A stretch of 64,000 nucleotides of DNA from an uncultured Chloroflexia bacterium (GTDB lineage Bacteria; Chloroflexota; Limnocylindria; Limnocylindrales; CSP1-4): contig CAWHHU010000003.1 in NCBI GenBank assembly GCA_963829295.1, positions 360,157 to 424,156 of the forward strand, read 5' to 3'. Positions 1-11,537 of this stretch are shown in pieces (the first letter of the stretch is position 1; every line of letters starts with the position of its first letter). The notes below the pieces were generated by a model, which did not search any database, had not been told where the DNA came from, and saw only the letters and a list, made by a program, of their open reading frames with translations. The translations under genes and the position numbers were made by a program.

Positions 1-658
1 GCGCCTGCACGGCCAGCAGATCGTCGATCGAGGCAATGCCGCCCGACGCGATGATCTGGCCCCGGTCGAGCCCGACCAGCGTCCGGAGCAGCCCGAGATC
101 GGGGCCCTCGAGCTGACCGTCCCGATCGATCGCGGTGACCTCGAACGCCGTGATCCCGGCTTCGGCCAGCATCGTCACGGCTTCGATCGCGGGCAGGCCG
201 GACGCTCCCGGTCGCCAGCCCTCGCCCAGCGCGAGACCGTCGCGCACGTCGATCGAGGCGACCACGCGATCGGGTCCGTAGTGCTCGACGATCGATGCCG
301 CGAAGTCAGGATCGTGCAGCGCGGCCGTGCCCACGGCCACCCTCGCGGCACCGGTGCCGAGCGCGCCCGCGACCGAGACCAGCGTCCGCAGCCCGCCGCC
401 CAGCTCCACGCTGGCTCGACCGTGCACCTCCGCGACCAGCGCAGCCGCGATGTCGAGCTGCCTGGGCTCCCCCACCCGGGCCCCGTCGAGATCGACCACG
501 TGCAGCCAGGTCGCGCCGAGGCCGGCAAACCGGGCGGCGACCGACACCGGTTCCGTCCCGTAGGCGGTCTCGCGCCCGAAGTCGCCCTGCCGGAGCCGCA
601 CGACCGACCCACCCCGCAGGTCGATCGCCGGCAACAGCTCGAACCCCGACACGCTCAC
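1..658 (-). CDS. hisA: HisA/PriA (ProFAR isomerase), 3' end truncated by window edge
   Basis: Minus-strand translation from GTG at 658 gives VSVSGFELLPAIDLRGGSVVRLRQGDF...WLHVVDLDGAR...GGGLR...IIASGGIASIDDL, the canonical HisA (beta/alpha)8 motifs. An in-frame stop lies at 662-664, and the ORF is open to position 1. It is not in the ORF track because it is incomplete. Confidence 0.8.
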   Translation of the reverse strand, partial: MSVSGFELLPAIDLRGGSVVRLRQGDFGRETAYGTEPVSVAARFAGLGATWLHVVDLDGARVGEPRQLDIAAALVAEVHGRASVELGGGLRTLVSVAGALGTGAARVAVGTAALHDPDFAASIVEHYGPDRVVASIDVRDGLALGEGWRPGASGLPAIEAVTMLAEAGITAFEVTAIDRDGQLEGPDLGLLRTLVGLDRGQIIASGGIASIDDLLAVQA

Positions 659-676
659 ACCTCAGTCCAGCCGTGA

Positions 677-694
677 TAGCGTATTAGTACGCTA
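677..694. promoter_or_regulatory. 18-bp palindrome TAGCGTA-TTAG-TACGCTA in an AT-richer divergent hisA/yerC-hisG intergenic region; candidate operator overlapping a GTGATA-17-TATGGT promoter-like element
   Basis: Perfect 7-bp inverted arms read directly from the sequence. It sits between divergent starts at 658 (-) and 763 (+), and local GC is much lower than the surroundings. Confidence 0.35.
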
Positions 695-762
695 CTATGG
701 TAGCATGAGCCTCGGCGGCACCGGCGAACGGCCGTCGATGGAACCTGGAGGCAGTCGAACCG

Positions 763-1095
763 GTGGCCGAGACCTGGCAGACACCCGAGACCGATGCGCT
801 GATCGGTGCCATTCTGCACCTCGACGATGCCGACGAGGCGGGTCGCTTTCTGCGCGACCTGTGCACGCTCGGCGAGCTGCATGCGCTGGCCCAGCGGTGG
901 GCCGTGGTCCGCCTCCTCGACGAAGGGCTGCACTACGCGGAGATCTCGAAGCGCACCGGGGCCAGCACGGCCACGATCACGAGGATCGCCAACTGGCTCA
1001 ACCACGGCGAGGGGGGCTACCGGCTGATGCTCGACCGGCTGCGCGACGGTGCCCGATCGGCGGCTCCGCGCAGCTACCCGACCGGCAGCGAGTGA
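763..1095 (+). CDS. YerC/YecD-family TrpR-like DNA-binding protein
   Basis: LIGAILHLDDADEAGRFLRDLCTLGELHALAQRWAVVRLLDEGLHYAEISKRTGASTATITRIANWL matches the Trp-repressor-like YerC/YecD signature (..LC T.NEL.ALAQR......L..G..Y..IS..TGASTATISR). GTG start at 763. Its stop TGA overlaps the hisG ATG (GTGATG). Confidence 0.8.
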   Translation: MAETWQTPETDALIGAILHLDDADEAGRFLRDLCTLGELHALAQRWAVVRLLDEGLHYAEISKRTGASTATITRIANWLNHGEGGYRLMLDRLRDGARSAAPRSYPTGSE

Positions 1096-1955
1096 TGCGG
1101 GAACGCCTGCGGCTCGCCGTCCCCAACAAGGGCCGCCTGGTGGAGCCGACCCTGAGCCTGCTCCACGACGCCGGCCTGGTGTTCGAAGAACACGATCGAA
1201 GCCTGGTTGCCCGGGTCCAGAACCACCCACTGGACATCCTGTTCGTGCGTACCGGTGACGTGGTCGAGTTCGTCGGCGACAACGTGGCCGATATCGGGAT
1301 CACGGGGATGGACATCCTCCAGGAGACCGGGGCCGAGCTCCCGGTGCTGCACACCCTGGGCTACGGTCACTGCCGGCTGGCCGCCGCCGTCCCCGCCGAC
1401 TCCCCCTACGAGACCATCACCGATCTGGCCGGCGTTCGGGTGGCGACCTCGCACCCCGGCGTGACCCGGCGGTTCTTCGCCAGCCAGGGGGTCGCGGTCG
1501 ACGTCGTGTCGCTGTCGGGAGCCGTCGAGGTCGCGCCACGCCTGGGCCTGGCCGACGCGATCGTCGATCTCGTGTCAACGGGCTCCACGCTGGCCATGAA
1601 CGGGCTGCGGGCGATCGGCGACATCCTCGCCTCGCAGGCCGTCCTGATCGGCAACCCGGTCGCCATCCGGCTACGCGCCGATGAGCTCGACTCGATCGTG
1701 ACCATGCTCGGCTCCGTGATCGCCGCGCGCGGCCGCAAGTACCTGATGATGAACGCCCCGGCCACGCACCTCGCCGAGCTCGAGGCGCTGCTGCCGGGCC
1801 TCGAATCGCCATCTGTGATCCCGCTGGCGCACGCCGGCATGATCGCCATCCATTCCGTGGTCGGCACCGACGAGGTGTGGGGCCTGCTGCCGCGGCTCAA
1901 GGCCGCCGGCGCCTCGGGGATCCTCGTGCTCCCGATCGAGAAGATCCTGCCGTGA
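1095..1955 (+). CDS. hisG: ATP phosphoribosyltransferase, long form with C-terminal regulatory domain
   Basis: MRERLRLAVPNKGRL...LILFVRTGDVVEFVGDNVADIGITGMD...IVDLVSTGSTL are HisG hallmarks. 286 aa. ATG at 1095 lies in the same frame as the track ORF 705..1955. Confidence 0.95.
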   Translation: MRERLRLAVPNKGRLVEPTLSLLHDAGLVFEEHDRSLVARVQNHPLDILFVRTGDVVEFVGDNVADIGITGMDILQETGAELPVLHTLGYGHCRLAAAVPADSPYETITDLAGVRVATSHPGVTRRFFASQGVAVDVVSLSGAVEVAPRLGLADAIVDLVSTGSTLAMNGLRAIGDILASQAVLIGNPVAIRLRADELDSIVTMLGSVIAARGRKYLMMNAPATHLAELEALLPGLESPSVIPLAHAGMIAIHSVVGTDEVWGLLPRLKAAGASGILVLPIEKILP

Positions 1956-3304
1956 CCACGCTCCCCACCGGGACCCCACCGGACCTCCGGTTGCGTCGCC
2001 TCGACCTGCGGTCGGATGACCCGGCGGTCATCCGTGAGCGCGACGCGCTGTTCCGCCGCGGGGCCGTCCCCGATCCCGCCATCCGCGAGGCAGCCCGCTC
2101 CATCCTGGCCGACGTGCGCGAGCGCGGCGCGGTCGCGGTGCGAGAGGCCGGCCGCCGCTTCGGCGGCGGGCGACCCGATGGGCGCCTGATCCTCGGCCGG
2201 GGGGAGCTTCGCGCCGCCCGGGATGCGCTGGGCGCCGCCGAACGGGCCGCGCTCGAGGCCGCGATCGCCAACGTTCGCCGCTTCGCCGAGGCCCAGCTGC
2301 CCCGGTCCGAGACCGTCGAGGTCATCCCCGGCGTCGCTCTCGAGCGTCGATGGCTGCCGTCGGCACGCGTGGGTGCGTACGTGCCCGGCGGATCGGCGCC
2401 CTACGCGTCGTCGCTGGTGATGACCGTCGTGCCAGCGCGCGTGGCCGGGGTCGAGAGCGTCGTGGTCGCCTCGCCGGCGGATGCGAGCGGGGCCAACGAC
2501 CCGGTCCTGCTGGGCGCTGCGGGCATCCTCGATGTCGACGCGCTCCTGGTCGCGGGCGGTGCGCAGGCCATCGGCGCGCTCGCCTACGGGCTGCCGGAGG
2601 AGGGCCTCGATCCCGTCGACCTGATCGTGGGACCGGGCAGCGCGTGGGTCACGGCGGCCAAGGTCGAGGTCGTGGGCGAGGTGGTGATCGACATGCCGGC
2701 GGGCCCGTCCGAGGGTCTGGTCCTCGCCGACGGCACGGCGTCGGTCCGGATCGTCGCCGCGGACCTCATCACCCAGGCCGAGCACGGTGTCGACTCGCCG
2801 GCGATCCTGGTCACCCCCGATGAGGCGCTCGCCGGCGCGGTCGAGGACGAGGTGCGCCGGCGGCTGGCGACCGCGTCGCGTCGCGGCATCCTCGGCCGCG
2901 CGCTCGCCGACCACGGGCTGATCGTGCTGGTGCGCGACATCGATGCCGGCATCGCGTTCGTCAACGGCTACGGACCCGAGCACCTCTCGGTCGAGGTCGA
3001 CGATCCGGAGACGGCGGTGGCGGCGATCCGCAGCGCGGGGTCGATCTTCGTCGGCCGCTGGTCGCCCGAGTCTGCGGGTGACTACGCGTCGGGCGCGAAC
3101 CACGTGTTGCCCACCGGTGGCCTGGCCCGCGGATGCGGACCGCTGGCGGTCGAGACGTTCGGCAGGTACAGCCAGGTCCAGCGGATCACGCGCGAAGGGC
3201 TGGCTGCCCTGCGACCCGCGATCCGCACCCTGGCCGAGGCGGAGGGTCTGCTCGCCCATCGCGACGCCGTCGAGATCCGGTTCGACGAGGAGGCCGGGAG
3301 ATGA
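1952..3304 (+). CDS. hisD: Histidinol dehydrogenase
   Basis: Full-length HisD similarity (…VGAYVPGGSAPYASSLVMTVVPARVAGV…ITQAEHGVDSP…GANHVLPTGG…). GTG at 1952 overlaps the hisG stop (GTGA). Confidence 0.95.
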   Translation: MTTLPTGTPPDLRLRRLDLRSDDPAVIRERDALFRRGAVPDPAIREAARSILADVRERGAVAVREAGRRFGGGRPDGRLILGRGELRAARDALGAAERAALEAAIANVRRFAEAQLPRSETVEVIPGVALERRWLPSARVGAYVPGGSAPYASSLVMTVVPARVAGVESVVVASPADASGANDPVLLGAAGILDVDALLVAGGAQAIGALAYGLPEEGLDPVDLIVGPGSAWVTAAKVEVVGEVVIDMPAGPSEGLVLADGTASVRIVAADLITQAEHGVDSPAILVTPDEALAGAVEDEVRRRLATASRRGILGRALADHGLIVLVRDIDAGIAFVNGYGPEHLSVEVDDPETAVAAIRSAGSIFVGRWSPESAGDYASGANHVLPTGGLARGCGPLAVETFGRYSQVQRITREGLAALRPAIRTLAEAEGLLAHRDAVEIRFDEEAGR

Positions 3305-4455
3305 GCCCCAGCCCCGTCACGACGACGTCGCCGACCGAGCCTGCCTCGTACAGCTGGGAGGCGACCGACGAGGCCGTCGCCGAGCGCTACGGGCTGCCGC
3401 TCGAGCGGATCATCCGGTTCGACCTCAACACCTCCCCTGCCCCGCCGCGGCTCCTCGGGGAGATGCTCGCTGCCGGCACCTTCGAAACCTCGCTGTCCGA
3501 GTACCCGCCGGGAGACTACCGGCGCTTGGTCGCGGCCGCCGCCGCGCGGTACGGCGTGAGCGAGGACGAGGTGGTGCCCGGAGCGGGTGCGGACGAGATT
3601 CTCGACATGTGCGTCAAGGCGTTCCTGCCGGCGGGGCAGAGCGCCGTCGTCCCGGTACCCAGCTATGCCATGTACCGGGTGGTGACCGAGCAGCGCGGCG
3701 GTCGCATGGTCGCCGTCCCTCGTCGCGGTCCGGGCGACGGCTTCGCGATCGATGTCGAAGCCGTCAGGGTCGCCGCCCGAGACGCGGCCATGGTCTGGCT
3801 GTGCAACCCGAACAACCCGACCGGGGCCGAGGAGCCTGCGGGCACGATCGAATCCCTCCTCCGCGCGATCGCCGCCGATTCCGCCGCCGAGGGCCGGGCG
3901 CCTGCGTGGGTCGTCGTCGACGAGGCCTACGCCGAGTTCAGCGGCCACACCTTCATCCCGCTGCGCACCCGCTATCCGAACCTTGCCATCGTGCGCACGG
4001 CGTCCAAGGCGTACGCGCTGGCCGGGCTGCGCGTCGGGTTCGCCGTGGCCGCGCCCACCACGCTGGCCCGGATCGCGCGGTACCGCCCGCCGGGCTCGGT
4101 GGGCACGATCTCAGAAACGGTGGCCACCCGCGCGCTGCGTGACGGCGAGGAGATGCGCGACAACGTCGCCAGGGTCGAACGGGAGCGCACGCGCCTCTCG
4201 AACGCTCTGGCCGCGGCCGGCTTGCGGCCCTACCCGTCGGTGACCAACTTCATCCTCGCGGATCTCGGCTCGCCCGAGCGCGCCGGGGCGACGGCCGGGG
4301 CCCTCATGCGGCGCGGGCTCGTGCCCCGGACGTTCCCCGCCGGGCACCCCCTGGCGGGTTGCCTCCGGGTCACGGTTCGTGCGGCCACCGAGAACGACCG
4401 GCTGCTGGATGCCGTTGGCGAGATCACGAACGCAGATCCGGGAGGGGCGTCATGA
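3301..4455 (+). CDS. hisC: Histidinol-phosphate aminotransferase
   Basis: Class II aminotransferase motifs (NPNNPTG, ...VVVDEAYAEF, TASKAYALAGLRVGFA with the PLP lysine). ATG at 3301 overlaps the hisD stop (ATGA). Confidence 0.9.
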   Translation: MSPSPVTTTSPTEPASYSWEATDEAVAERYGLPLERIIRFDLNTSPAPPRLLGEMLAAGTFETSLSEYPPGDYRRLVAAAAARYGVSEDEVVPGAGADEILDMCVKAFLPAGQSAVVPVPSYAMYRVVTEQRGGRMVAVPRRGPGDGFAIDVEAVRVAARDAAMVWLCNPNNPTGAEEPAGTIESLLRAIAADSAAEGRAPAWVVVDEAYAEFSGHTFIPLRTRYPNLAIVRTASKAYALAGLRVGFAVAAPTTLARIARYRPPGSVGTISETVATRALRDGEEMRDNVARVERERTRLSNALAAAGLRPYPSVTNFILADLGSPERAGATAGALMRRGLVPRTFPAGHPLAGCLRVTVRAATENDRLLDAVGEITNADPGGAS

Positions 4456-5078
4456 CCAGTCCGCTGGGCGGCATCGAGGTGATCGAGCGGTCGCCTCGTC
4501 GGGTACGGGTGGTGCGCCGTACGCGCGAGACCGACGTGACCGTGGCTCTCGACCTCGACGGCAACGGCATCGCCGACGTCACCACCGGAGTGGGGTTCTA
4601 CGACCACCTGCTCTCGTCGATGACCCACCACGGCCTGTTCGACCTCGAGATCCGGGCGACCGGCGATCTCCACGTGGACGAGCACCACAGCGTCGAGGAC
4701 GTCGCGCTCGTCACCGGGGCGGCGTTCGCGGCGGCGCTCGGCGACCGGGCCGGCATCCGGCGCTTCGGCGACAGCTCGGTGCCCATGGACGAGGCGCTGG
4801 CGACGGCCGTGATCGATGTCGGCGGCCGCCCGTATGCCGTGATCGATCTCCCGTTCCGCGCCGAGCGGGCGGGCGCGCTGCCGCTCCAGCTCGTCGAGCA
4901 TGCCCTCGAGGCGTTCGCCCGGACCGCCGGTTTCACCCTCCACTGCCGCGGGGCGGGGCGCAACGACCACCATCTCGCCGAGGCCACGTTCAAGGCCCTC
5001 GGGCGCGCCCTGCGCGAGGCCTGCGAGCTCGACCCGCGGCGGGTGGGCGTGGCCTCGACCAAGGGGACCCTGGGATGA
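4452..5078 (+). CDS. hisB: Imidazoleglycerol-phosphate dehydratase
   Basis: [16 protein letters not shown]...[13 protein letters not shown]...[15 protein letters not shown] are IGPD signature motifs. ATG at 4452 overlaps the hisC stop. Confidence 0.95.
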
Positions 5079-5737
5079 GCGACGGTCCGCTGGCGGCCGT
5101 GGTCGACTACGGGGCCGGCAATCTCGTGTCCATCGGCCAGGCGCTCGCGACGGCGGGTGCCCGCGTCCGGCGGGTCGCGAACGGCGCGGAGATCGATGGC
5201 GCCGATCTCCTGGTGGTGCCCGGCGTCGGAGCCGCGGCACCGGCCATGGAACGTCTGGGGGCGGCGGGGCTCGTCGAGCCGATCCTGCGCTGGATCGCCG
5301 CGGACCGACCGTTCCTGGGGATCTGCCTCGGGCTCCAGCTCCTGTTCCAGGGCAGCGACGAGGACGGAGCGGCGACGCTGGGCGTGCTGGCCGGTCGGAC
5401 GGAGCGGCTCTCCGGCGCCCCGACGCTGCCGCACATCGGCTGGAACCAGGTCACCCGAACGCAGCCGCACCCGGCCTTCGACGGCATCGCCGACGGCGCG
5501 GACTTCTACTTCGTCCATTCCTACATCGGTGTCCCGAGAGACGGACACGACGAGGCGATCCTGGCCCGCACGACGCACGGATCGTCGTTCGTGTCGGCGG
5601 TCGCGCGCGGGCGGCTGCTCGGCGTCCAGTTCCATCCCGAGCGGTCCGGCGTGGACGGCCTGCGGCTGGTGGCCAACGTGGTCGGGCTGGCGGCCACCGC
5701 GCGGTTGCCGGCGACGCCCGGCGCAGGCCCCGCCTGA
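5075..5737 (+). CDS. hisH: Imidazole glycerol phosphate synthase, glutaminase subunit
   Basis: [16 protein letters not shown]...LVVPGVGA...[12 protein letters not shown]...HIGWN...FYFVHSY is a class I glutamine amidotransferase with the catalytic Cys in GICLG. ATG at 5075 overlaps the hisB stop. Confidence 0.95.
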
Positions 5738-6552
5738 TGCTCCGCCGCCGGGTCATCCCGTGCCTCGACGTCGCCCACGGCCGCGTGGTCAAGGGCACCC
5801 GGTTCGTCGACCTCGTCGATGCCGGCGACCCGCCCGAGCTCGCCGAGCGCTACGCGCGCGAGGGGGCGGACGAGCTGGTGTTCCTGGACATCACGGCCGC
5901 CCCCGAGGAGCGCGGCACCCTGCTCGAGGTCGTGGAGCGCACGGCCCGCCGAGCGTTCATCCCGCTCACCGTGGGTGGTGGCGTGCGCAGCGTTGACGAG
6001 ATGCGCGACGTGCTCCGCGCGGGAGCCGACAAGGTCAGCCTCAACACCCGCGCGGTCGCCGAGCCGGAGCTGGTTGGCCGGTGTGCGGCCCGGTTCGGCA
6101 GCCAGGCCGTGGTGGTGGCGATCGACGCGCGACGGGTGGCCGGAGCCGGCCCCGACGATCCGGGCCGGGCCGACGGCGCCTCGGGCTTCGAGGTCGTCGT
6201 GCGCGGTGGCCGGGACCCTGCCGGCCTCGACGCTGTCGCCTGGGCCGTGCGGGCGGTCGAGCTCGGGGCGGGCGAGCTGCTGGTGACCTCGATCGACCGC
6301 GACGGGACCGGGCTGGGCTTCGACACCGATCTCCTGCGCGCGATCACCGATCGGGTGGAGGTCCCGGTGATCGCCTCGGGCGGGGCCGCCGGCCCGGCCG
6401 ACTTCGTGGCCGCCATCCGGCAGGGCGGCGCCGATGCGGTGCTCGCGGCCGGCATCTTCCACCGCCGGGAGGTCTCGATCGCCGACGTCAAGGCGGGGAT
6501 GGCCGCCGCCGGGCTACCGGTGCGAGCCGTCTCACCGGAGGTCGCCGCATGA
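5737..6552 (+). CDS. hisF: Imidazole glycerol phosphate synthase, cyclase subunit
   Basis: [17 protein letters not shown]...[10 protein letters not shown]...ASGGAG are HisF motifs. ATG at 5737 overlaps the hisH TGA (TGATG). There is no hisA between hisH and hisF. Confidence 0.95.
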
Positions 6553-7268
6553 CCGGGGCCGCTGGTCCCGTGGACCTCGATCGCGGGCTCGACCCCGCCC
6601 GCGTCGCCTGGGGCCCGTCCGGCCTTGTCGCAGGCGTGATCCAGGATGCCGGCGACGGCCGGGTGCTGATGGTCGGGTGGCTCGATGTGGAGGCGCTGGC
6701 GGCCACCCTCGCGACCGGCGAGGTGCATTTCCACTCGCGATCGCGAGGCCGCCTGTGGCGCAAGGGCGAGACCTCCGGCAACGTGCTCCGCCTGCGGTCG
6801 CTGGCGCTCGACTGCGACGGTGACGCGCTGCTGATCGGCGTCGACCCGGCTGGCCCCACCTGCCACCGCGGAACCCGCTCCTGCTTCGACGCCGTCGACA
6901 CGTCACCCGCGCTCGGCGCGACCACCAGACCCCAGGGGTTCGCCTGGCTCGAGTCCCTGTGGCTGACGATCACGGAACGCGCCGTCGAACGGCCGCCGGG
7001 CTCCTACACCGTCACCATGCTCGAGGGCGGCGTCGATCTGGTGGGGCGCAAGGTGGCCGAGGAGGCGACCGAGGTCCTGCTCGCCGCCAAGAACGACGAG
7101 GCCGCCGAGGCCGCGAGCTCGGATCGCGACCGGACCCGCGCGCTGCTGGCGAACGAGGCCGGCGATCTCGTGTACCACGCCCTGGTGCTCCTCGCCGAGC
7201 GGGGCATGGAGCCCACGGCCGTCATCGAGGTGCTGCGTGACCGCCACGGTGATGCGGGCCGCGGCTGA
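6549..7268 (+). CDS. hisIE: Bifunctional phosphoribosyl-AMP cyclohydrolase / phosphoribosyl-ATP pyrophosphatase
   Basis: The N-terminal part ...[25 protein letters not shown]...[18 protein letters not shown]...CDGDALL is HisI. The C-terminal part ...[10 protein letters not shown]...[13 protein letters not shown] is HisE. ATG at 6549 overlaps the hisF stop. Confidence 0.9.
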
Positions 7269-7295
7269 GCGGGAGACGGGCATCGAATCGCGGCC

Positions 7296-7316
7296 ACCGG
7301 GTCGCCCCCGGGCCGA
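7296..7316. terminator. Weak hairpin (CCGGG-TCGCC-CCCGG) between convergent hisIE and tyrS
   Basis: Short GC stem read from the sequence. There is no clear U-tract, so this is a low-confidence bidirectional terminator. Confidence 0.2.
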
Positions 7317-7333
7317 ACGCGATCGCGACCTCG

Positions 7334-8650
7334 CTAGGCGCCGCGCCGGACCCGGACGATCGCCCGTTGCCGCTTGCCCACCCGCACCTCGAGCCACTGT
7401 CCGTCGATGGCTGCCGGCGGCGACGCCGCGGCATCGGTGACTCGTTCACCGTTGATCGTGATCGCGCCACCCGCGACCAGCCGCCGGGCCTCGCCGCGCG
7501 AGGGCGTGAGACCCGCCTCGGCCAGCAGCGTCACGACCCCTGCCTCGACGGCCGTGGCAACCACCTCCGGGCCCCGCGTCGCTGCGTGGATGGTCGCGAG
7601 CAGCCCGGGGTCCGTGACTGGCTCGCGGCGGAACAGCGCCTCCGAAACGCGGACGGCCTCGCTCGCCGCCGCGGCTCCGTGGACCCGCGCGGTCACGTCG
7701 AACGCCAGGCGCCGCTGCGCCTCGCGTCCCTCCGGGCGTGCGACGATCTCCGCTTCCAGTGCCTCGATCTCCTCGCGGGACCAGAGGGTGAACCAGCGCA
7801 GGTAGACGGGCACGTCGTGATCGTCCGCCTGGATCCAGTACTGGTAGAAGGCATAGGGCGTCGTCCGCTCCGCATCGAGCCAGACCGACTCGCCTTCGTC
7901 GCTCTTGCCGAACTTGGCGCCCGATGGGGCGAGCAGCAGCTTGTATGCGATCCCGTGGGCCGGGCTCTCATCGCGGTCGGCGGCATGCGTCCGGCGGATG
8001 AGCTCGAGACCGGCGGTGATGTTGCCCCACTGGTCCGCGCCGCCCATCTGCATCTCGACGCCATGCTCCCGGTAGAGGTTGGCGAAGTCGAACGCCTGGA
8101 GCGTCATGTAGCTGAACTCGGTGAACGACAGGCCGCGGTCGAGGCGCTGCTGGACCGAGTCCTTGGCCAGCATGTAGGGGACCGTGAAGTGCTTGCCGAC
8201 ATCGCGCAGATACTCGATCAGCGACAGCTCGCCGAGCCAGTCCATGTTGTTGGCCATCACCGCCTGCGAGGGCCCGGGCGAGAAGTCGAGGAAACGCTCC
8301 AGCTGCCTTCCGATCGCGGCGACATTGCGCTCGATCGTGGCCGCATCGAGCAGGTTGCGCTCGGACGACCGTCCGGAGGGATCGCCGATCATGCCCGTGC
8401 CGCCACCGACCAGTGCGATCGGCCTGCCGCCGCGTTGCTGGAGCCGGATCAGCCCGAACACCGGGACCAGGTGCCCGACGTGGAGCGAATCTGCTGACGG
8501 ATCGAAGCCGTTGTAGGCCGCGATCCTGCGTCCGGTTGCCAGCCGCTCGGCGAGCCCGGGCGTGGTGGCATGCAGGATGCCCCGCCAGTCCAGCTCCTCG
8601 AGCAGCCCGGCGAGGGCCGGCGCATCGCCCTCCGTGGCCTGCCCGCTCAT
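7334..8650 (-). CDS. tyrS: Tyrosyl-tRNA synthetase
   Basis: Class I aaRS HIGH motif (DSLHVGHLVP) and KMSKS-like KFGKS. A C-terminal S4-like domain is present. Start is M 'MSGQATEGD' at 8650 (aa 119 of the longer track ORF). It is divergent from the PBP gene. Confidence 0.9.
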   Translation of the reverse strand: MSGQATEGDAPALAGLLEELDWRGILHATTPGLAERLATGRRIAAYNGFDPSADSLHVGHLVPVFGLIRLQQRGGRPIALVGGGTGMIGDPSGRSSERNLLDAATIERNVAAIGRQLERFLDFSPGPSQAVMANNMDWLGELSLIEYLRDVGKHFTVPYMLAKDSVQQRLDRGLSFTEFSYMTLQAFDFANLYREHGVEMQMGGADQWGNITAGLELIRRTHAADRDESPAHGIAYKLLLAPSGAKFGKSDEGESVWLDAERTTPYAFYQYWIQADDHDVPVYLRWFTLWSREEIEALEAEIVARPEGREAQRRLAFDVTARVHGAAAASEAVRVSEALFRREPVTDPGLLATIHAATRGPEVVATAVEAGVVTLLAEAGLTPSRGEARRLVAGGAITINGERVTDAAASPPAAIDGQWLEVRVGKRQRAIVRVRRGA

Positions 8651-8780
8651 GGTTCCTGTCGCCATCCGAAGCGCTCCCATCGTGGTCGCAGCGTCACAGA
8701 CACGGTGCCGGGACCGTCGTGCGACCGGCCCGGCGGAGGGAACGGGCTTCCATCCCGCGCATGGTATCGTTCCGCCCGCA

Positions 8781-11537
8781 ATGCAGACCAGCCTCGCCCG
8801 GAGGCAGCGGCAGCGCCGGCTTGGCAACCGCCGCCACCGAGGCAGCGGAGCCGCCCGTGCGGCCGCCATCACCCTTCCGCTCTTCCTGTTCGGGACGCTC
8901 GTGCTGCTCGGCGCAGCCGGCGCGATGGGGTCCGTGGCCGCGTACACGTACCTCTCGAAGGACCTGCCGGATCCCAAGCAGGCGTTCGAGCAGATCACGT
9001 TCACCTCGCAATCGGCTGTCTACGACCGCACGGGCAAGGTCCTGCTGGCCAAGCTCGGCGACGACCGCCGCGACGTCGTGACGTTCGACCAGATACCGCC
9101 CGCGCTGATCGATGCCACCACCTCCGTCGAGGACAAGACCTTCTGGAACAACTCCGGGTTCGACCCGCTGGGCTTCGTCTCGGCCGCCATCGACACGATC
9201 AACGGCAACGATCGCGGCGCCTCGACGATCACCCAGCAGCTCGTCCGGGCGCGCCTGCTGCCCGAGAGCGCGTTTGCCGAGGGCGTCTACATCCGCAAGG
9301 CCAAGGAGATCATCCAGTCGATCCGCCTGACCGAGGCGTACCCGGGAACCACCGGCAAGCAGGCGATCATGGAGAACTACCTCAACCAGAACTTCTACGG
9401 CAATCGCAGCTACGGTGTGGCCGCCGCCGCGAAGAGCTACTGGCGCAAGAGCCTCAAGGACCTCGACCTGGCCCAGATGGCGCTGCTCGCGGCCATCCCG
9501 CAGTCGCCGACCCGGTTTGACCTGGTCAAGAACGCCGTGGAGGAGACGTACACCGACGCGAAGGGCAACGAGCAGACGCACCTCGTGGTGTCGCCGACCA
9601 GCGAGGTGGTCCAGCGCCGGAACTTCATCCTCGACCTGATGAAGACCCGCAGCGTGCTGACGTCCCACCCGTTCACGTTCGACGGTCAGGATTACCCGGC
9701 CTACACGGAGGCTGACTTCGAGGCCGCCAAGGCCGAGCCCGTCGTCCTCGCGTCGCAGGCGGCGGACACCTGGCGGGCACCGCAGTTCGTGTGGCAGGCG
9801 CGCGATGAGCTGGGACAGATCCTGTGCGGCGATCCGAACAACTGCCAGAAGATCGACACCGGCGGCTATACGGTCATCACGACCCTCAACTACGACATGC
9901 AGCGCAAGGCCGAGAAGTGGGTCTATGCGTCCGCCATCGCCTCCAGCTCGAAGCATGCGGACACGCTGCTCAAGAACCACGGCGTCCAGCGCAGCCAATG
10001 GTCATGGATCACGGCGCTGCGAAGCCAAAACCTCCACAACGCGGCGGCGGGGGTGGTCGACTACCGGACCGGCCAGGTCCTCGCCTACGCGGGCTCGGCC
10101 CAGTACACAGGCAAGTCGACCAAGAAGTTCCAGCCGCAGTTCGACGTCCTCTCCAACGGCTGGCGCCAGACTGGCTCGGCGATCAAGCCGCTCATCTACT
10201 CGACCGGGATCGAGGATCGCACGTTCACGGCCGCCACGATGTTCATGGAGGTGGTCACGAACTTCGCGCCTTCCGGCGCCAAGCCGTACGAGCCGACCCA
10301 GGATGACGGCCTGGAGCGCGGGCCCGTCCGGCTGCGTGAGGCGCTCCAGTACTCGCTGAACATCCCGGCCGTGAAGGCCGGCATCCTGATCGGGCTCGAC
10401 CGCGAGCTCAGCCGGTTCAGGGACTTCGGGCTCGAGTTCCCCAGCGGAACCGCACCCGTGATCTCGCAGAGCCTCGGGACGCTGGTGACCCATCCGATCG
10501 AGCTGATCAGCGCGTTCGGCGCGATTGCCAATGGCGGGGTGCTGATGCCGCGCACGACGATCCTGAAGATCCTCGACCCCTCCGGCAGCCAGGTATGGCC
10601 GGCGCCCAACACCAAGGTCGCCGGCACCCGCGTGATCTCTCGTCAGACGGCGTACATCGTCACGGACATCCTGTCGGGCAACACCGACCCCAGCGTCAAC
10701 CCCTACTGGGCCAAGTGGAAGGTCACCGACGGCGTGAGCTCGTCGGTCAACCGGCCGGCCGCGTACAAGACGGGCACCACCCAGGATACGCGCGATGTGC
10801 TCGCGGCAGGCTACCTGCCACCGCCCGCCGATCCCTCGCTCCCGGGGCTCGTGGTCGGGGTCTGGATGGGCAACTCGGACAACTCGCCGACCGGCGCCAT
10901 CTCCCTCAAGTCGTCCGCTCCGCTGTGGTCCGCGATCATGTCCGACATCGCGAAAGGGATGCCGATCGACCGGTTCGCGCGAACCAAGCCAAAGGGCCTG
11001 GTGACCGCCAAGGTCGACGCGTTCACGGGCTTCAAGCCCGGTCCGAGCACCACCAGGACCGTCAAAGAGCTGTTCCTGACGGGCACGGGGCCGGCCAGCT
11101 CCACCGGGAACACGGTGACGCTCGACATCGATGCCGCGACCGGCAAGCTGTGGCAGGACGGCTGTGCCGGGCCGATGGAGACCAGGACGTACATCGATCT
11201 CAGCCAGGTGGAGTCGATCAAGTCGTGGCAGAAGGCCGATGCCGCCTGGCAGGCGCGGGCAGCCCGGGGCGTCGGCGTCGCCGGGGGCCCGAAGCACACG
11301 CGAACCTCGTACTTCTACGAGTACTACGGCTTCAAGCCATTCGGCTCATCCTGGGGCGGCCGGTTCGCCCCCACCAAGACCTGTCCGATCGCCCCGCCGT
11401 CGCCGTCGATCTGTGTGTCCACCGACCCACTCTCGCCGTGCCCGTCGCAGCCGGCCATCACCCCGGAGCCGACGCCAACCCCGGCGCCGCCGGGCCACGG
11501 GAACGGCAAGGGCAACCAGCCAACGCCCACGCCCTGA
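8781..11537 (+). CDS. Class A penicillin-binding protein (glycosyltransferase + transpeptidase), Pro-rich C-terminal tail
   Basis: N-terminal TM segment. GT51 motifs (SVEDKTFW, RGASTITQQL). Transpeptidase motifs (SAIKP, SLN, KTGT). ATG is at 8781 (M74 of the track ORF). The C-terminus is PEPTPTPAPPGHGNGKGNQPTPTP. Confidence 0.9.
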   Translation: MQTSLARRQRQRRLGNRRHRGSGAARAAAITLPLFLFGTLVLLGAAGAMGSVAAYTYLSKDLPDPKQAFEQITFTSQSAVYDRTGKVLLAKLGDDRRDVVTFDQIPPALIDATTSVEDKTFWNNSGFDPLGFVSAAIDTINGNDRGASTITQQLVRARLLPESAFAEGVYIRKAKEIIQSIRLTEAYPGTTGKQAIMENYLNQNFYGNRSYGVAAAAKSYWRKSLKDLDLAQMALLAAIPQSPTRFDLVKNAVEETYTDAKGNEQTHLVVSPTSEVVQRRNFILDLMKTRSVLTSHPFTFDGQDYPAYTEADFEAAKAEPVVLASQAADTWRAPQFVWQARDELGQILCGDPNNCQKIDTGGYTVITTLNYDMQRKAEKWVYASAIASSSKHADTLLKNHGVQRSQWSWITALRSQNLHNAAAGVVDYRTGQVLAYAGSAQYTGKSTKKFQPQFDVLSNGWRQTGSAIKPLIYSTGIEDRTFTAATMFMEVVTNFAPSGAKPYEPTQDDGLERGPVRLREALQYSLNIPAVKAGILIGLDRELSRFRDFGLEFPSGTAPVISQSLGTLVTHPIELISAFGAIANGGVLMPRTTILKILDPSGSQVWPAPNTKVAGTRVISRQTAYIVTDILSGNTDPSVNPYWAKWKVTDGVSSSVNRPAAYKTGTTQDTRDVLAAGYLPPPADPSLPGLVVGVWMGNSDNSPTGAISLKSSAPLWSAIMSDIAKGMPIDRFARTKPKGLVTAKVDAFTGFKPGPSTTRTVKELFLTGTGPASSTGNTVTLDIDAATGKLWQDGCAGPMETRTYIDLSQVESIKSWQKADAAWQARAARGVGVAGGPKHTRTSYFYEYYGFKPFGSSWGGRFAPTKTCPIAPPSPSICVSTDPLSPCPSQPAITPEPTPTPAPPGHGNGKGNQPTPTP

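Follow-up and report, generated by a model that had tools for sequence, protein, structure and literature searches.

The 64-kb stretch of DNA analyzed here (the window, whose positions are used for numbering throughout) comes from an uncultured Chloroflexia bacterium of the order Limnocylindrales and begins with a histidine biosynthesis locus, in which hisA is transcribed divergently from an operon headed by a gene for a small TrpR-family protein. Our analysis suggests that this protein is an ortholog of the histidine repressor HisR and that its target is a conserved palindromic element of ~30 bp in the intergenic region separating the two transcription units. Comparative sequence data make it likely, for the model as a whole, that HisR represses both hisA and its own operon in a histidine-dependent manner from boxes shared by the two units. 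HisR control of a his operon would thereby be newly extended to the Limnocylindrales and to the phylum Chloroflexota, the mechanism itself being an ordinary one. The features that appear to be specific to this lineage are the split-off hisA gene sharing the element, a box of the proteobacterial type, the 30-bp palindrome, and the overlapping boxes in the clade of the window.

The YerC protein of Bacillus subtilis has been identified as HisR, a TrpR-family repressor of the genes for histidine biosynthesis and uptake (Ashniev et al. 2022, PMC9413887). The same study predicted 20-bp palindromic HisR boxes in 492 genomes and found a box upstream of about half of the hisR genes, implying autoregulation; the in vitro DNA binding of the only assayed family member, HisR of Ruminococcus gnavus, requires histidine. 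Besides the Proteobacteria considered below, a hisR-his arrangement was reported there in all analyzed Peptococcaceae, most Selenomonadales and Acidaminococcales, and Elusimicrobium, and in Exiguobacterium one HisR site was assigned to two divergent units, his and hisJ, with the same sequence given in both orientations. Because YerC is the described HisR, a YerC-like gene at the head of a his operon is an arrangement of an already published type, and not an unusual one as the initial annotation of the window had held. The phylum Chloroflexota lies outside the phyla surveyed in PMC9413887, where the word occurs in the reference list only, and no other HisR paper was found for this phylum.

The HisR ortholog and its genomic context

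The regulatory gene hisR (763-1095, plus strand) encodes a YerC/YecD-type protein of 110 amino acids with a GTG start codon and is preceded by GGAGG at 747-751. The protein scores 89.5 bits with the family model TIGR02531 (cut-off, 42.2) and 87.5 bits with PF01371 (cut-off, 27), and it falls short of the TrpR equivalog TIGR01321 (27.3 bits vs. a cut-off of 67.25). Its closest solved structures are the PDB entries 3FRW, 3G1C, and 3KOR (E-values of 1e-17 to 1e-19), the second of which is treated as HisR in PMC9413887. The turn and recognition helix of the helix-turn-helix (HTH) motif, TGASTATITRI, agree with the family pattern TGASTATI[ST]R, are kept relative to all three structures, and are invariant in 28 homologs from the lineage. 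The AlphaFold2 (AF2) model, with a predicted local distance difference test score (pLDDT) of 87.8, has six helices in a TrpR-like fold; its best Foldseek match is 3FRW (template modeling (TM) score 0.92, root-mean-square deviation 1.2 Å), followed by 3G1C (TM 0.84) and then by E. coli TrpR (TM ~0.6). The DNA-binding HTH presupposed by the repressor role in the initial annotation is present in this predicted structure. From profile matches and modeled fold, the protein is assigned as a predicted HisR ortholog, that is, a TrpR-family member of the YerC type.

Metagenomes contain 5,606 relatives of this protein at E-values of at most 1e-5, and the named ones, 68-76% identical, belong to assemblies of 'Candidatus Limnocylindrales bacterium' and 'uncultured Chloroflexia bacterium'. 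We compared 16 nonredundant orthologous loci of Limnocylindrales and other Chloroflexota assemblies, which were retrieved via the protein and not via the motif (the window, L001-L005, L008-L014, L016, L017, and L019). Where the gene calls are intact, the order is an EF-G-like gene, hisA on the minus strand, and hisR-hisG-hisD-hisC on the plus strand, in line with the yerC-hisG synteny that the initial annotation proposed to look for in related genomes. The divergent hisA/hisR layout is present in every orthologous locus with enough sequence on both sides, and in 22 further metagenome loci among the matches listed tblastn placed HisA on one side of the site and HisR on the other. The recurring layout thus marks the divergent position of hisA as a stable trait of the lineage. 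In the long contigs from one study of the European Nucleotide Archive (L008, L010-L014, L016, and L019; ERZ250395xx), hisG, hisD, and the EF-G-like gene are called in pieces, which in these long-read contigs probably reflects assembly frameshifts and not pseudogenes.

A conserved palindromic element in the hisA/hisR intergenic region

The divergent hisA/hisR intergenic region measures 110 bp (653-762), slightly more than the 100 bp first ascribed to it, and is indeed AT-richer than its surroundings: its GC content is 0.61 (measured over 659-762) and drops to 0.49 at 670-712, compared with 0.70 for the whole window. The palindrome singled out in the initial annotation, TAGCGTA-TTAG-TACGCTA, can be read directly at 677-694, with its axis at 685.5, and occurs once in the window even if three mismatches are allowed. 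However, the window contains 18 perfect inverted repeats of the 7-N4-7 type, and a perfect repeat with 7-bp arms is found in 6% of shuffled spacers. The 18-bp palindrome alone is within chance expectation; what makes it significant is that it is conserved and that it matches the HisR motif.

What is conserved in all 16 orthologous loci is a longer palindromic element of ~30 bp (675-707; consensus from 677, TAGCGTnTTAgCACGCTAcTACGnTAGCATG; dyad at 689.5), in which the mean information is 1.53 bits per column, as compared with 0.37 and 0.38 in the two 25-nt flanks. If window position 677 is taken as element position 1 and columns are counted over 40 nonredundant loci, 14 positions are invariant, and the palindrome is centered at position 13.5 (window 689.5). 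Three copies of the hexamer ACGCTA are present in the element, inverted at positions 1-6 and direct at 13-18 and 21-26, and tetramers of the form xTAG/CTAx follow each other every 8 bp in the window (ATAG at 676-679, TTAG at 684-687, CTAC at 692-695, and GTAG at 700-703). The expected conservation of the 18-bp palindrome itself in orthologous spacers was found for the element as a whole and for six of the seven base pairs, with 83.5% of the cells of the 6-bp arms TAGCGT/ACGCTA paired across 13 orthologs, but not for the innermost, seventh pair, which is unpaired in eight of the 13.

HisR boxes: register and tandem arrangement

A symmetrized weight matrix was constructed from 31 published proteobacterial HisR sites (PMC9413887, Additional file 3), such as tgtattagcacgctaataca, with a background of 70% GC. 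The training sites score between 15.7 and 37 bits, and the mean over the window is -56 bits with a standard deviation of 13.5. Only three positions in the 64 kb reach 0 bits or more, 672 (23.3), 680 (13.4), and 42818 (2.2), and only two exceed 5 bits. The best of them, box 1 (CGTGATAGCGTATTAGTACG, 672-691, axis 681.5), lies inside the training range. The second best, box 2 (CGTATTAGTACGCTACTATG, 680-699, axis 689.5), represents the register used throughout the lineage, which reaches 10 bits or more at each of the 16 orthologous loci (median 18.7); with the same matrix the remaining frames have a median of -20 bits across these loci. The register of box 1 is strong in the window, L004, and L005 and weakly positive in nine other loci. 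Two boxes staggered by 8 bp are observed in the window (23.3 and 13.4 bits), L004 (12.8 and 12.3), and L005 (16.5 and 12.3), and the other 13 loci have one strong box. A weak third register, TACGCTACTATGGTAGCATG (688-707, axis 697.5), another 8 bp to the right, is of uncertain status. It scores about -5 bits with the proteobacterial matrix, as against the off-register median of -20, and 8.3 bits with a matrix of 44 actinobacterial sites, of which it is the best match in the window.

In locus L011 the register of box 2 reads CGTTTTAGCACGCTAATACG, to be compared with the published Pseudoxanthomonas site tgtattagcacgctaataca, and the consensus of the lineage, yGTnTTAGCACGCTAnTACG, appears to be essentially a proteobacterial, TrpR-like HisR box. 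The registers bear directly on the alternative that the operator is exactly the single palindrome TAGCGTA-N4-TACGCTA bound by one dimer at axis 685.5, which was the operator unit in the initial annotation. Though this palindrome is perfect in the window and its 6-bp arms are well conserved, a 20-bp frame on 685.5 is unlike the published HisR and TrpR consensus, and the published matrix picks the frames 4 bp to either side, 672-691 and 680-699, of which only the latter is universal in the lineage. The left arm is degraded in L003, L009, L011, L012, and L019, where the 680-699 register still scores at least 10 bits, and the frequently unpaired innermost pair argues in the same direction. Any pair of palindromic boxes set 8 bp apart has a center of symmetry halfway between them; symmetry about 685.5, the midpoint of 681.5 and 689.5, therefore arises automatically, and the 18-bp palindrome is a by-product of the two staggered boxes. 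We thus consider a single-palindrome operator unlikely. Lawson and Carey are said to have described in 1993 the binding of E. coli TrpR dimers in tandem at an 8-bp stagger; the fold matches of the window protein include PDB entry 1TRR, which bears the title 'tandem binding in crystals of a trp repressor/operator half-site complex'.

Similar boxes were encountered in two other lineages. Locus L070 (contig Ga0316187_10026086, GC 0.64) has hisA divergent from hisR-hisG-hisD, with a HisR protein 57% identical, and a single box TGTATTAGCGTGCTAAAACG at 1874-1893 (28.9 bits) that is one base off the published Maricaulis site tgtattagcgcgctaaaacg. Locus L060 (contig Ga0210051_1031597, GC 0.50), from an independent and unrelated lineage, has at 2986-3013 two boxes 8 bp apart, scoring 24.6 and 27.7 bits with the proteobacterial matrix, directly upstream of a stand-alone hisR-like gene whose 93-aa product is 47% identical to the window protein.

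Candidate promoters and the proposed mechanism

Counts across loci point to candidate extended -10 elements facing each other within the conserved element. For the hisR operon, the candidate is TGaTAGCGT at 674-682 on the plus strand: 34 of 40 loci have TG one base ahead of TAGCGT, a TAnnnT hexamer, and a -35-like hexamer (at least 4 of 6 matches to TTGACA) is located 16-19 nt upstream in 25 of 40, as opposed to 2-9 of 40 in eight control registers. A perfect TTGACA is present in five of the 40. For hisA, the putative counterpart is the mirror image TGCTACCAT at 697-705 on the minus strand (consensus TGnTAnCGT); on this side, element positions 28-29 (CA) and 25-26 (TA) hardly vary, and a -35 is not conserved.

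The conservation of TGnTAnnnT on both strands, together with the well-spaced -35-like hexamer on the hisR side, could also be explained if the element were a symmetric bidirectional promoter only, the YerC-like protein acting elsewhere or on nothing here. However, the invariant center TTAGCACGCTA (element positions 8-18) lies outside both -10 hexamers and is over-constrained for a spacer or start-site region; the same center matches a HisR matrix that was derived from another phylum, and the regulator gene is joined to the his operon in every locus. A promoter without the regulator is therefore very unlikely.

The palindrome might instead function in RNA, as a hairpin in the hisR leader that belongs to an attenuator, a T-box, or a riboswitch-like element. 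A stem of 7 bp with a 4-nt loop can be formed, and T-boxes and leader-peptide attenuators control his operons in other lineages (PMC9413887). Nevertheless, neither strand of 560-1150, which includes the intergenic region, has an Rfam match at E-values of up to 1, covariation in the putative stem is that of shuffled alignments (0.059 vs. 0.059, with 267 of 500 shuffles as high), the leader at 686-765 folds no better than shuffles (z-score 0.21), and there is no terminator-like site in 600-7600. The intergenic region contains neither CAC nor CAT in any frame and therefore holds no His-rich leader peptide, and half of the stem would escape transcription if, as is probable, the element overlaps the -10 and the start site. 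Such a hairpin appears extremely improbable.

In the mechanism that we propose, a HisR dimer with histidine as co-repressor would bind the 20-bp box yGTAnTAG-N4-CTAnTACr in the hisA/hisR intergenic region. Within the ~30-bp element, the boxes would be combined with the likely extended -10 elements of the two divergent promoters, that of hisR-hisGDCBHF(IE) and that of hisA. If both promoters are used, the two start sites would be no more than a base or two away from the dyad, near 689 on the plus strand and near 690 on the minus strand, and both of them, along with the inner half of each -10, would lie under the central box. Bound HisR would then block RNA polymerase at both promoters, and abundant histidine would lead to the shut-down of all nine genes, hisR itself included. 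The position of the central box over both starts and both -10 elements may explain why the whole 30 bp are conserved and how one repressor could control transcription in two directions. The proposal of the initial annotation, a histidine-responsive repressor that controls its own gene and acts on an operator common to it and hisA, is thus supported by homology, fold, synteny, and motif match; the promoter positions, a TrpR-like occupancy of the two overlapping boxes, and repression rather than activation are inferred.

Several observations weigh against this model. Box 2 of the window, with 13.4 bits, is just under the weakest training site (15.7 bits), and box 1 is strong in the window's own clade only. 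A strict sigma-70 scan found no promoter, and the window has a poor -35, CTCACA at 654-659. No second target site was detected in the window with either the lineage-element matrix or the published matrix; with the former, the next best position in the 64 kb has 3.8 bits, as against at least 26.9 bits for real sites. Finally, helix 2 departs from HisR at two of six conserved acidic positions, for which PMC9413887 proposes a role in histidine recognition: relative to 3G1C, DEA, D32, E38, and E54 are kept, FFED has changed to FLRD, and RFEV to RWAV. Judged by these replacements, histidine as the effector is not certain.

The helix-2 substitutions favor an alternative in which the protein binds the boxes and responds to an effector other than histidine, for instance another pathway intermediate, or acts as an activator, and the survey in PMC9413887 includes HisR paralogs that have switched to tyrosine and tyramine genes. 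On the other hand, hisR is invariably fused to the his operon, the sole family member assayed uses histidine (PMC9413887), and boxes that overlap the likely -10 and start region have the geometry expected of a repressor, so we regard this alternative as quite unlikely too. The assignment of the effector draws on the homologous Ruminococcus gnavus HisR, for which PMC9413887 reports the assay, and, because the hisR gene is fixed to the his operon, histidine is by far the most likely ligand.

An extended version of the shared-operator model is conceivable, though doubtful. It describes a symmetric bidirectional module with facing extended -10 elements about the dyad at 689.5 and two to three HisR dimers loaded, as with TrpR, at axes 681.5, 689.5, and 697.5, its box type and layout stemming from transfer or from shared ancestry with proteobacterial HisR. 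If true, such a module would allow hisA and the hisR operon to be co-repressed cooperatively and in a graded way from one compact site.

Organization of the histidine locus

Matches to Pfam and NCBIfam profiles bear out the identities initially given to the eight plus-strand genes and the divergent hisA. Downstream of hisR, the plus strand encodes hisG (1095-1955; TIGR00070, 203 bits), a long form with the C-terminal regulatory domain HisG_C; hisD (1952-3304; TIGR00069, 442.6 bits); hisC (3301-4455), whose best match, TIGR01141 with 247.8 bits, is below the cut-off of 276.55 and which also matches PF00155; hisB (4452-5078), comprising only the imidazoleglycerol-phosphate dehydratase (IGPD; PF00475, 192 bits; NF002111, 239.8 bits with a cut-off of 231); hisH (5075-5737; TIGR01855, 188.5 bits); hisF (5737-6552; TIGR00735, 325.4 bits); and hisIE (6549-7268; NF002747, 212.5 bits). 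As noted initially, hisA is missing from its place between hisH and hisF, which follow each other directly.

The junctions are exactly those listed in the initial annotation. Between the yerC-like hisR gene and hisG, GTGATG gives an overlap of 1 nt (ATG at 1095) or 4 nt (GTG at 1092); the hisG/hisD junction is GTGA, the hisH/hisF junction is TGATG, and ATGA is found at hisD/hisC, hisC/hisB, hisB/hisH, and hisF/hisIE. All overlaps are thus of 1 or 4 nt and are compatible with the translational coupling deduced from them, though overlaps do not prove that the coupling is strict. Start/stop overlaps are common in compact high-GC operons.

The divergent hisA gene, for the ProFAR isomerase, is truncated by the start of the window, which contains its 5' part on the minus strand (1-652; 219 amino acids; PF00977, 179.8 bits; TIGR00007, 178 bits). 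By homology to the 251-aa HisA of L004, its start is the GTG at 652, an alternative being the GTG at 658. Full-length HisA orthologs score 203-211 bits with TIGR00007, under the cut-off of 229; those of L004 (2201-2956) and L017 (2146-2898) are somewhat divergent HisA proteins. A bifunctional, PriA-like HisA/TrpF enzyme was considered as a reason for the split-off of hisA and found no support, as the hisA-trpF model yields 168-174 bits vs. a cut-off of 306.

The sole pathway step not encoded at the locus (1-7268) is histidinol-phosphate phosphatase, whose gene, encoded elsewhere, is an obvious candidate for a further HisR box. At the other end of the operon, hisIE ends 66 nt from a convergent open reading frame (ORF) similar to tyrosyl-tRNA synthetase (7334-9004), whose listed form carries a long extension at the N terminus. 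No terminator-like site was found in the intervening sequence (7269-7333), which does not fold more stably than its shuffled versions (z = 0.5).

Search for further HisR targets

A metagenome scan for TAGCGTNKTANNACGCTA returned at least 120 loci. Among the matches listed, 26 are his loci, the rest are mostly unrelated palindromes, and none makes a convincing case for a second target within the lineage. The regulon so far consists of the two transcription units at the locus.

Some of the other matches deserve mention in their own right. In L059 (165-192), L097 (88-115), and L124 (1809-1836), with GC contents of about 0.5-0.55, the three-hexamer element contains a HisR-like box CGTAGTAGCACGCTAAAGCG of ~8.5 bits upstream of a gene for a family-3 solute-binding protein (SBP_bac_3, 108 bits). 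These loci may represent a HisR-controlled amino-acid ATP-binding cassette transporter of another lineage, like the published hisXYZ*. In L134 (728-760, GC 0.69) the three-hexamer element TAGCGTGCTACTACGCTACCACGCTA lies upstream of a 115-aa ORF without a Pfam match on a 2.9-kb contig that has no his genes, and the opposite strand carries a perfect TTGACA-N17-TAGCGT; a HisR-like protein may have a second target here, or the site may be a mere promoter with TAGCGT as its -10. In L106 (3454-3513, GC 0.72) the region between a 201-aa ORF and a gene for a MaoC-like dehydratase contains arrayed repeats resembling ACG(T/C)GCTAA, with two boxes that score 14.8 and 11.7 bits.

Two groups of matches have no apparent relation to histidine genes. 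A longer palindrome, (cc)TAGCGTAnTAnTACGCTA(gg), precedes immediately a gene for a Cys/His-rich DUF6788 protein of 132-133 amino acids on contigs with ~0.58 GC (L049, L061, L075, L077, L079, L096, L102, L115, L031, and L107, as well as L076, L108, L116, L132, and L137); it has no HisR matrix match, and in L077 a transposase-like ORF is nearby. The 18-bp pattern is also found in conserved contexts of low GC content (0.35-0.41) in L069, L080, L111, L022, L037, L038, L050, L052, L054, L078, L112, L114, L117, and L133, adjoining an RteC-like gene (36 bits) in L069 and L111. The low-GC loci look like part of a Bacteroidota-type mobile element unrelated to HisR.

Significance and comparison with known systems

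If the prediction is correct, the HisR regulon reaches the Limnocylindrales, an uncultured lineage abundant in soil and freshwater that is outside the survey of ~500 HisR genomes, and thousands of metagenome entries named 'YerC/YecD family TrpR-related protein' gain a functional reading. The finding leaves the current understanding of histidine regulation unchanged. The affiliation of the box with the proteobacterial, TrpR-like type, and not with the Gram-positive one, bears on the co-evolution or transfer of regulators and sites, and a compact element serving two divergent units would be a tidy candidate for studying overlapping promoters and the tandem binding of TrpR-family proteins.

The closest known counterparts are the HisR-his operons of Proteobacteria (Xanthomonadales, Legionellales, Francisella, and Caulobacterales; PMC9413887), which, as here, have a 20-bp palindromic box just upstream. 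The boxes are nearly the same (published tgtattagcacgctaataca; L011, CGTTTTAGCACGCTAATACG; window, CGTATTAGTACGCTACTATG), except that the outermost bases are C/G in the lineage studied here and T/A in the proteobacterial box. The locus of the Limnocylindrales (Chloroflexota) further differs in that hisA is outside the operon and divergent from the same element, and that the box is placed inside a palindrome of ~30 bp, with a second overlapping box 8 bp away in the clade of the window.

The HisR proteins of Firmicutes and Actinobacteria, including B. subtilis YerC, the R. gnavus protein, and structures 3G1C, 3FRW, and 3KOR, belong to the same family and fold (39-44% identity; TM 0.80-0.92, normalized to the target) and share with the window the core TAG-N4-CTA and the target pathway. 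In contrast to the window, their boxes are flanked as cacTTTA...TAAAgtg (the actinobacterial matrix reaching 8.3 bits here), hisR is usually unlinked to the his genes, and the regulons often include transporters (hisXYZ*, yuiF), none of which was seen here.

The E. coli repressor TrpR (1TRO, 1TRR) has in common with the present system the fold of the superfamily, a 20-bp palindrome GTAnTAG-N4-CTAnTAC, and boxes staggered by 8 bp. The TrpR residues contacting tryptophan are not conserved in HisR (PMC9413887). TrpR and the window protein, which does not pass the TrpR equivalog model, have different effectors and target pathways, and tandem occupancy is here a candidate only.

In the bioA/bioBFCD region of E. 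coli, one palindromic BirA operator lies over two overlapping opposite promoters, and one repressor acts on both. The hisA/hisR intergenic region seems to follow the same design of one operator for two promoters, with a repressor of an unrelated family and a promoter geometry deduced from sequence.

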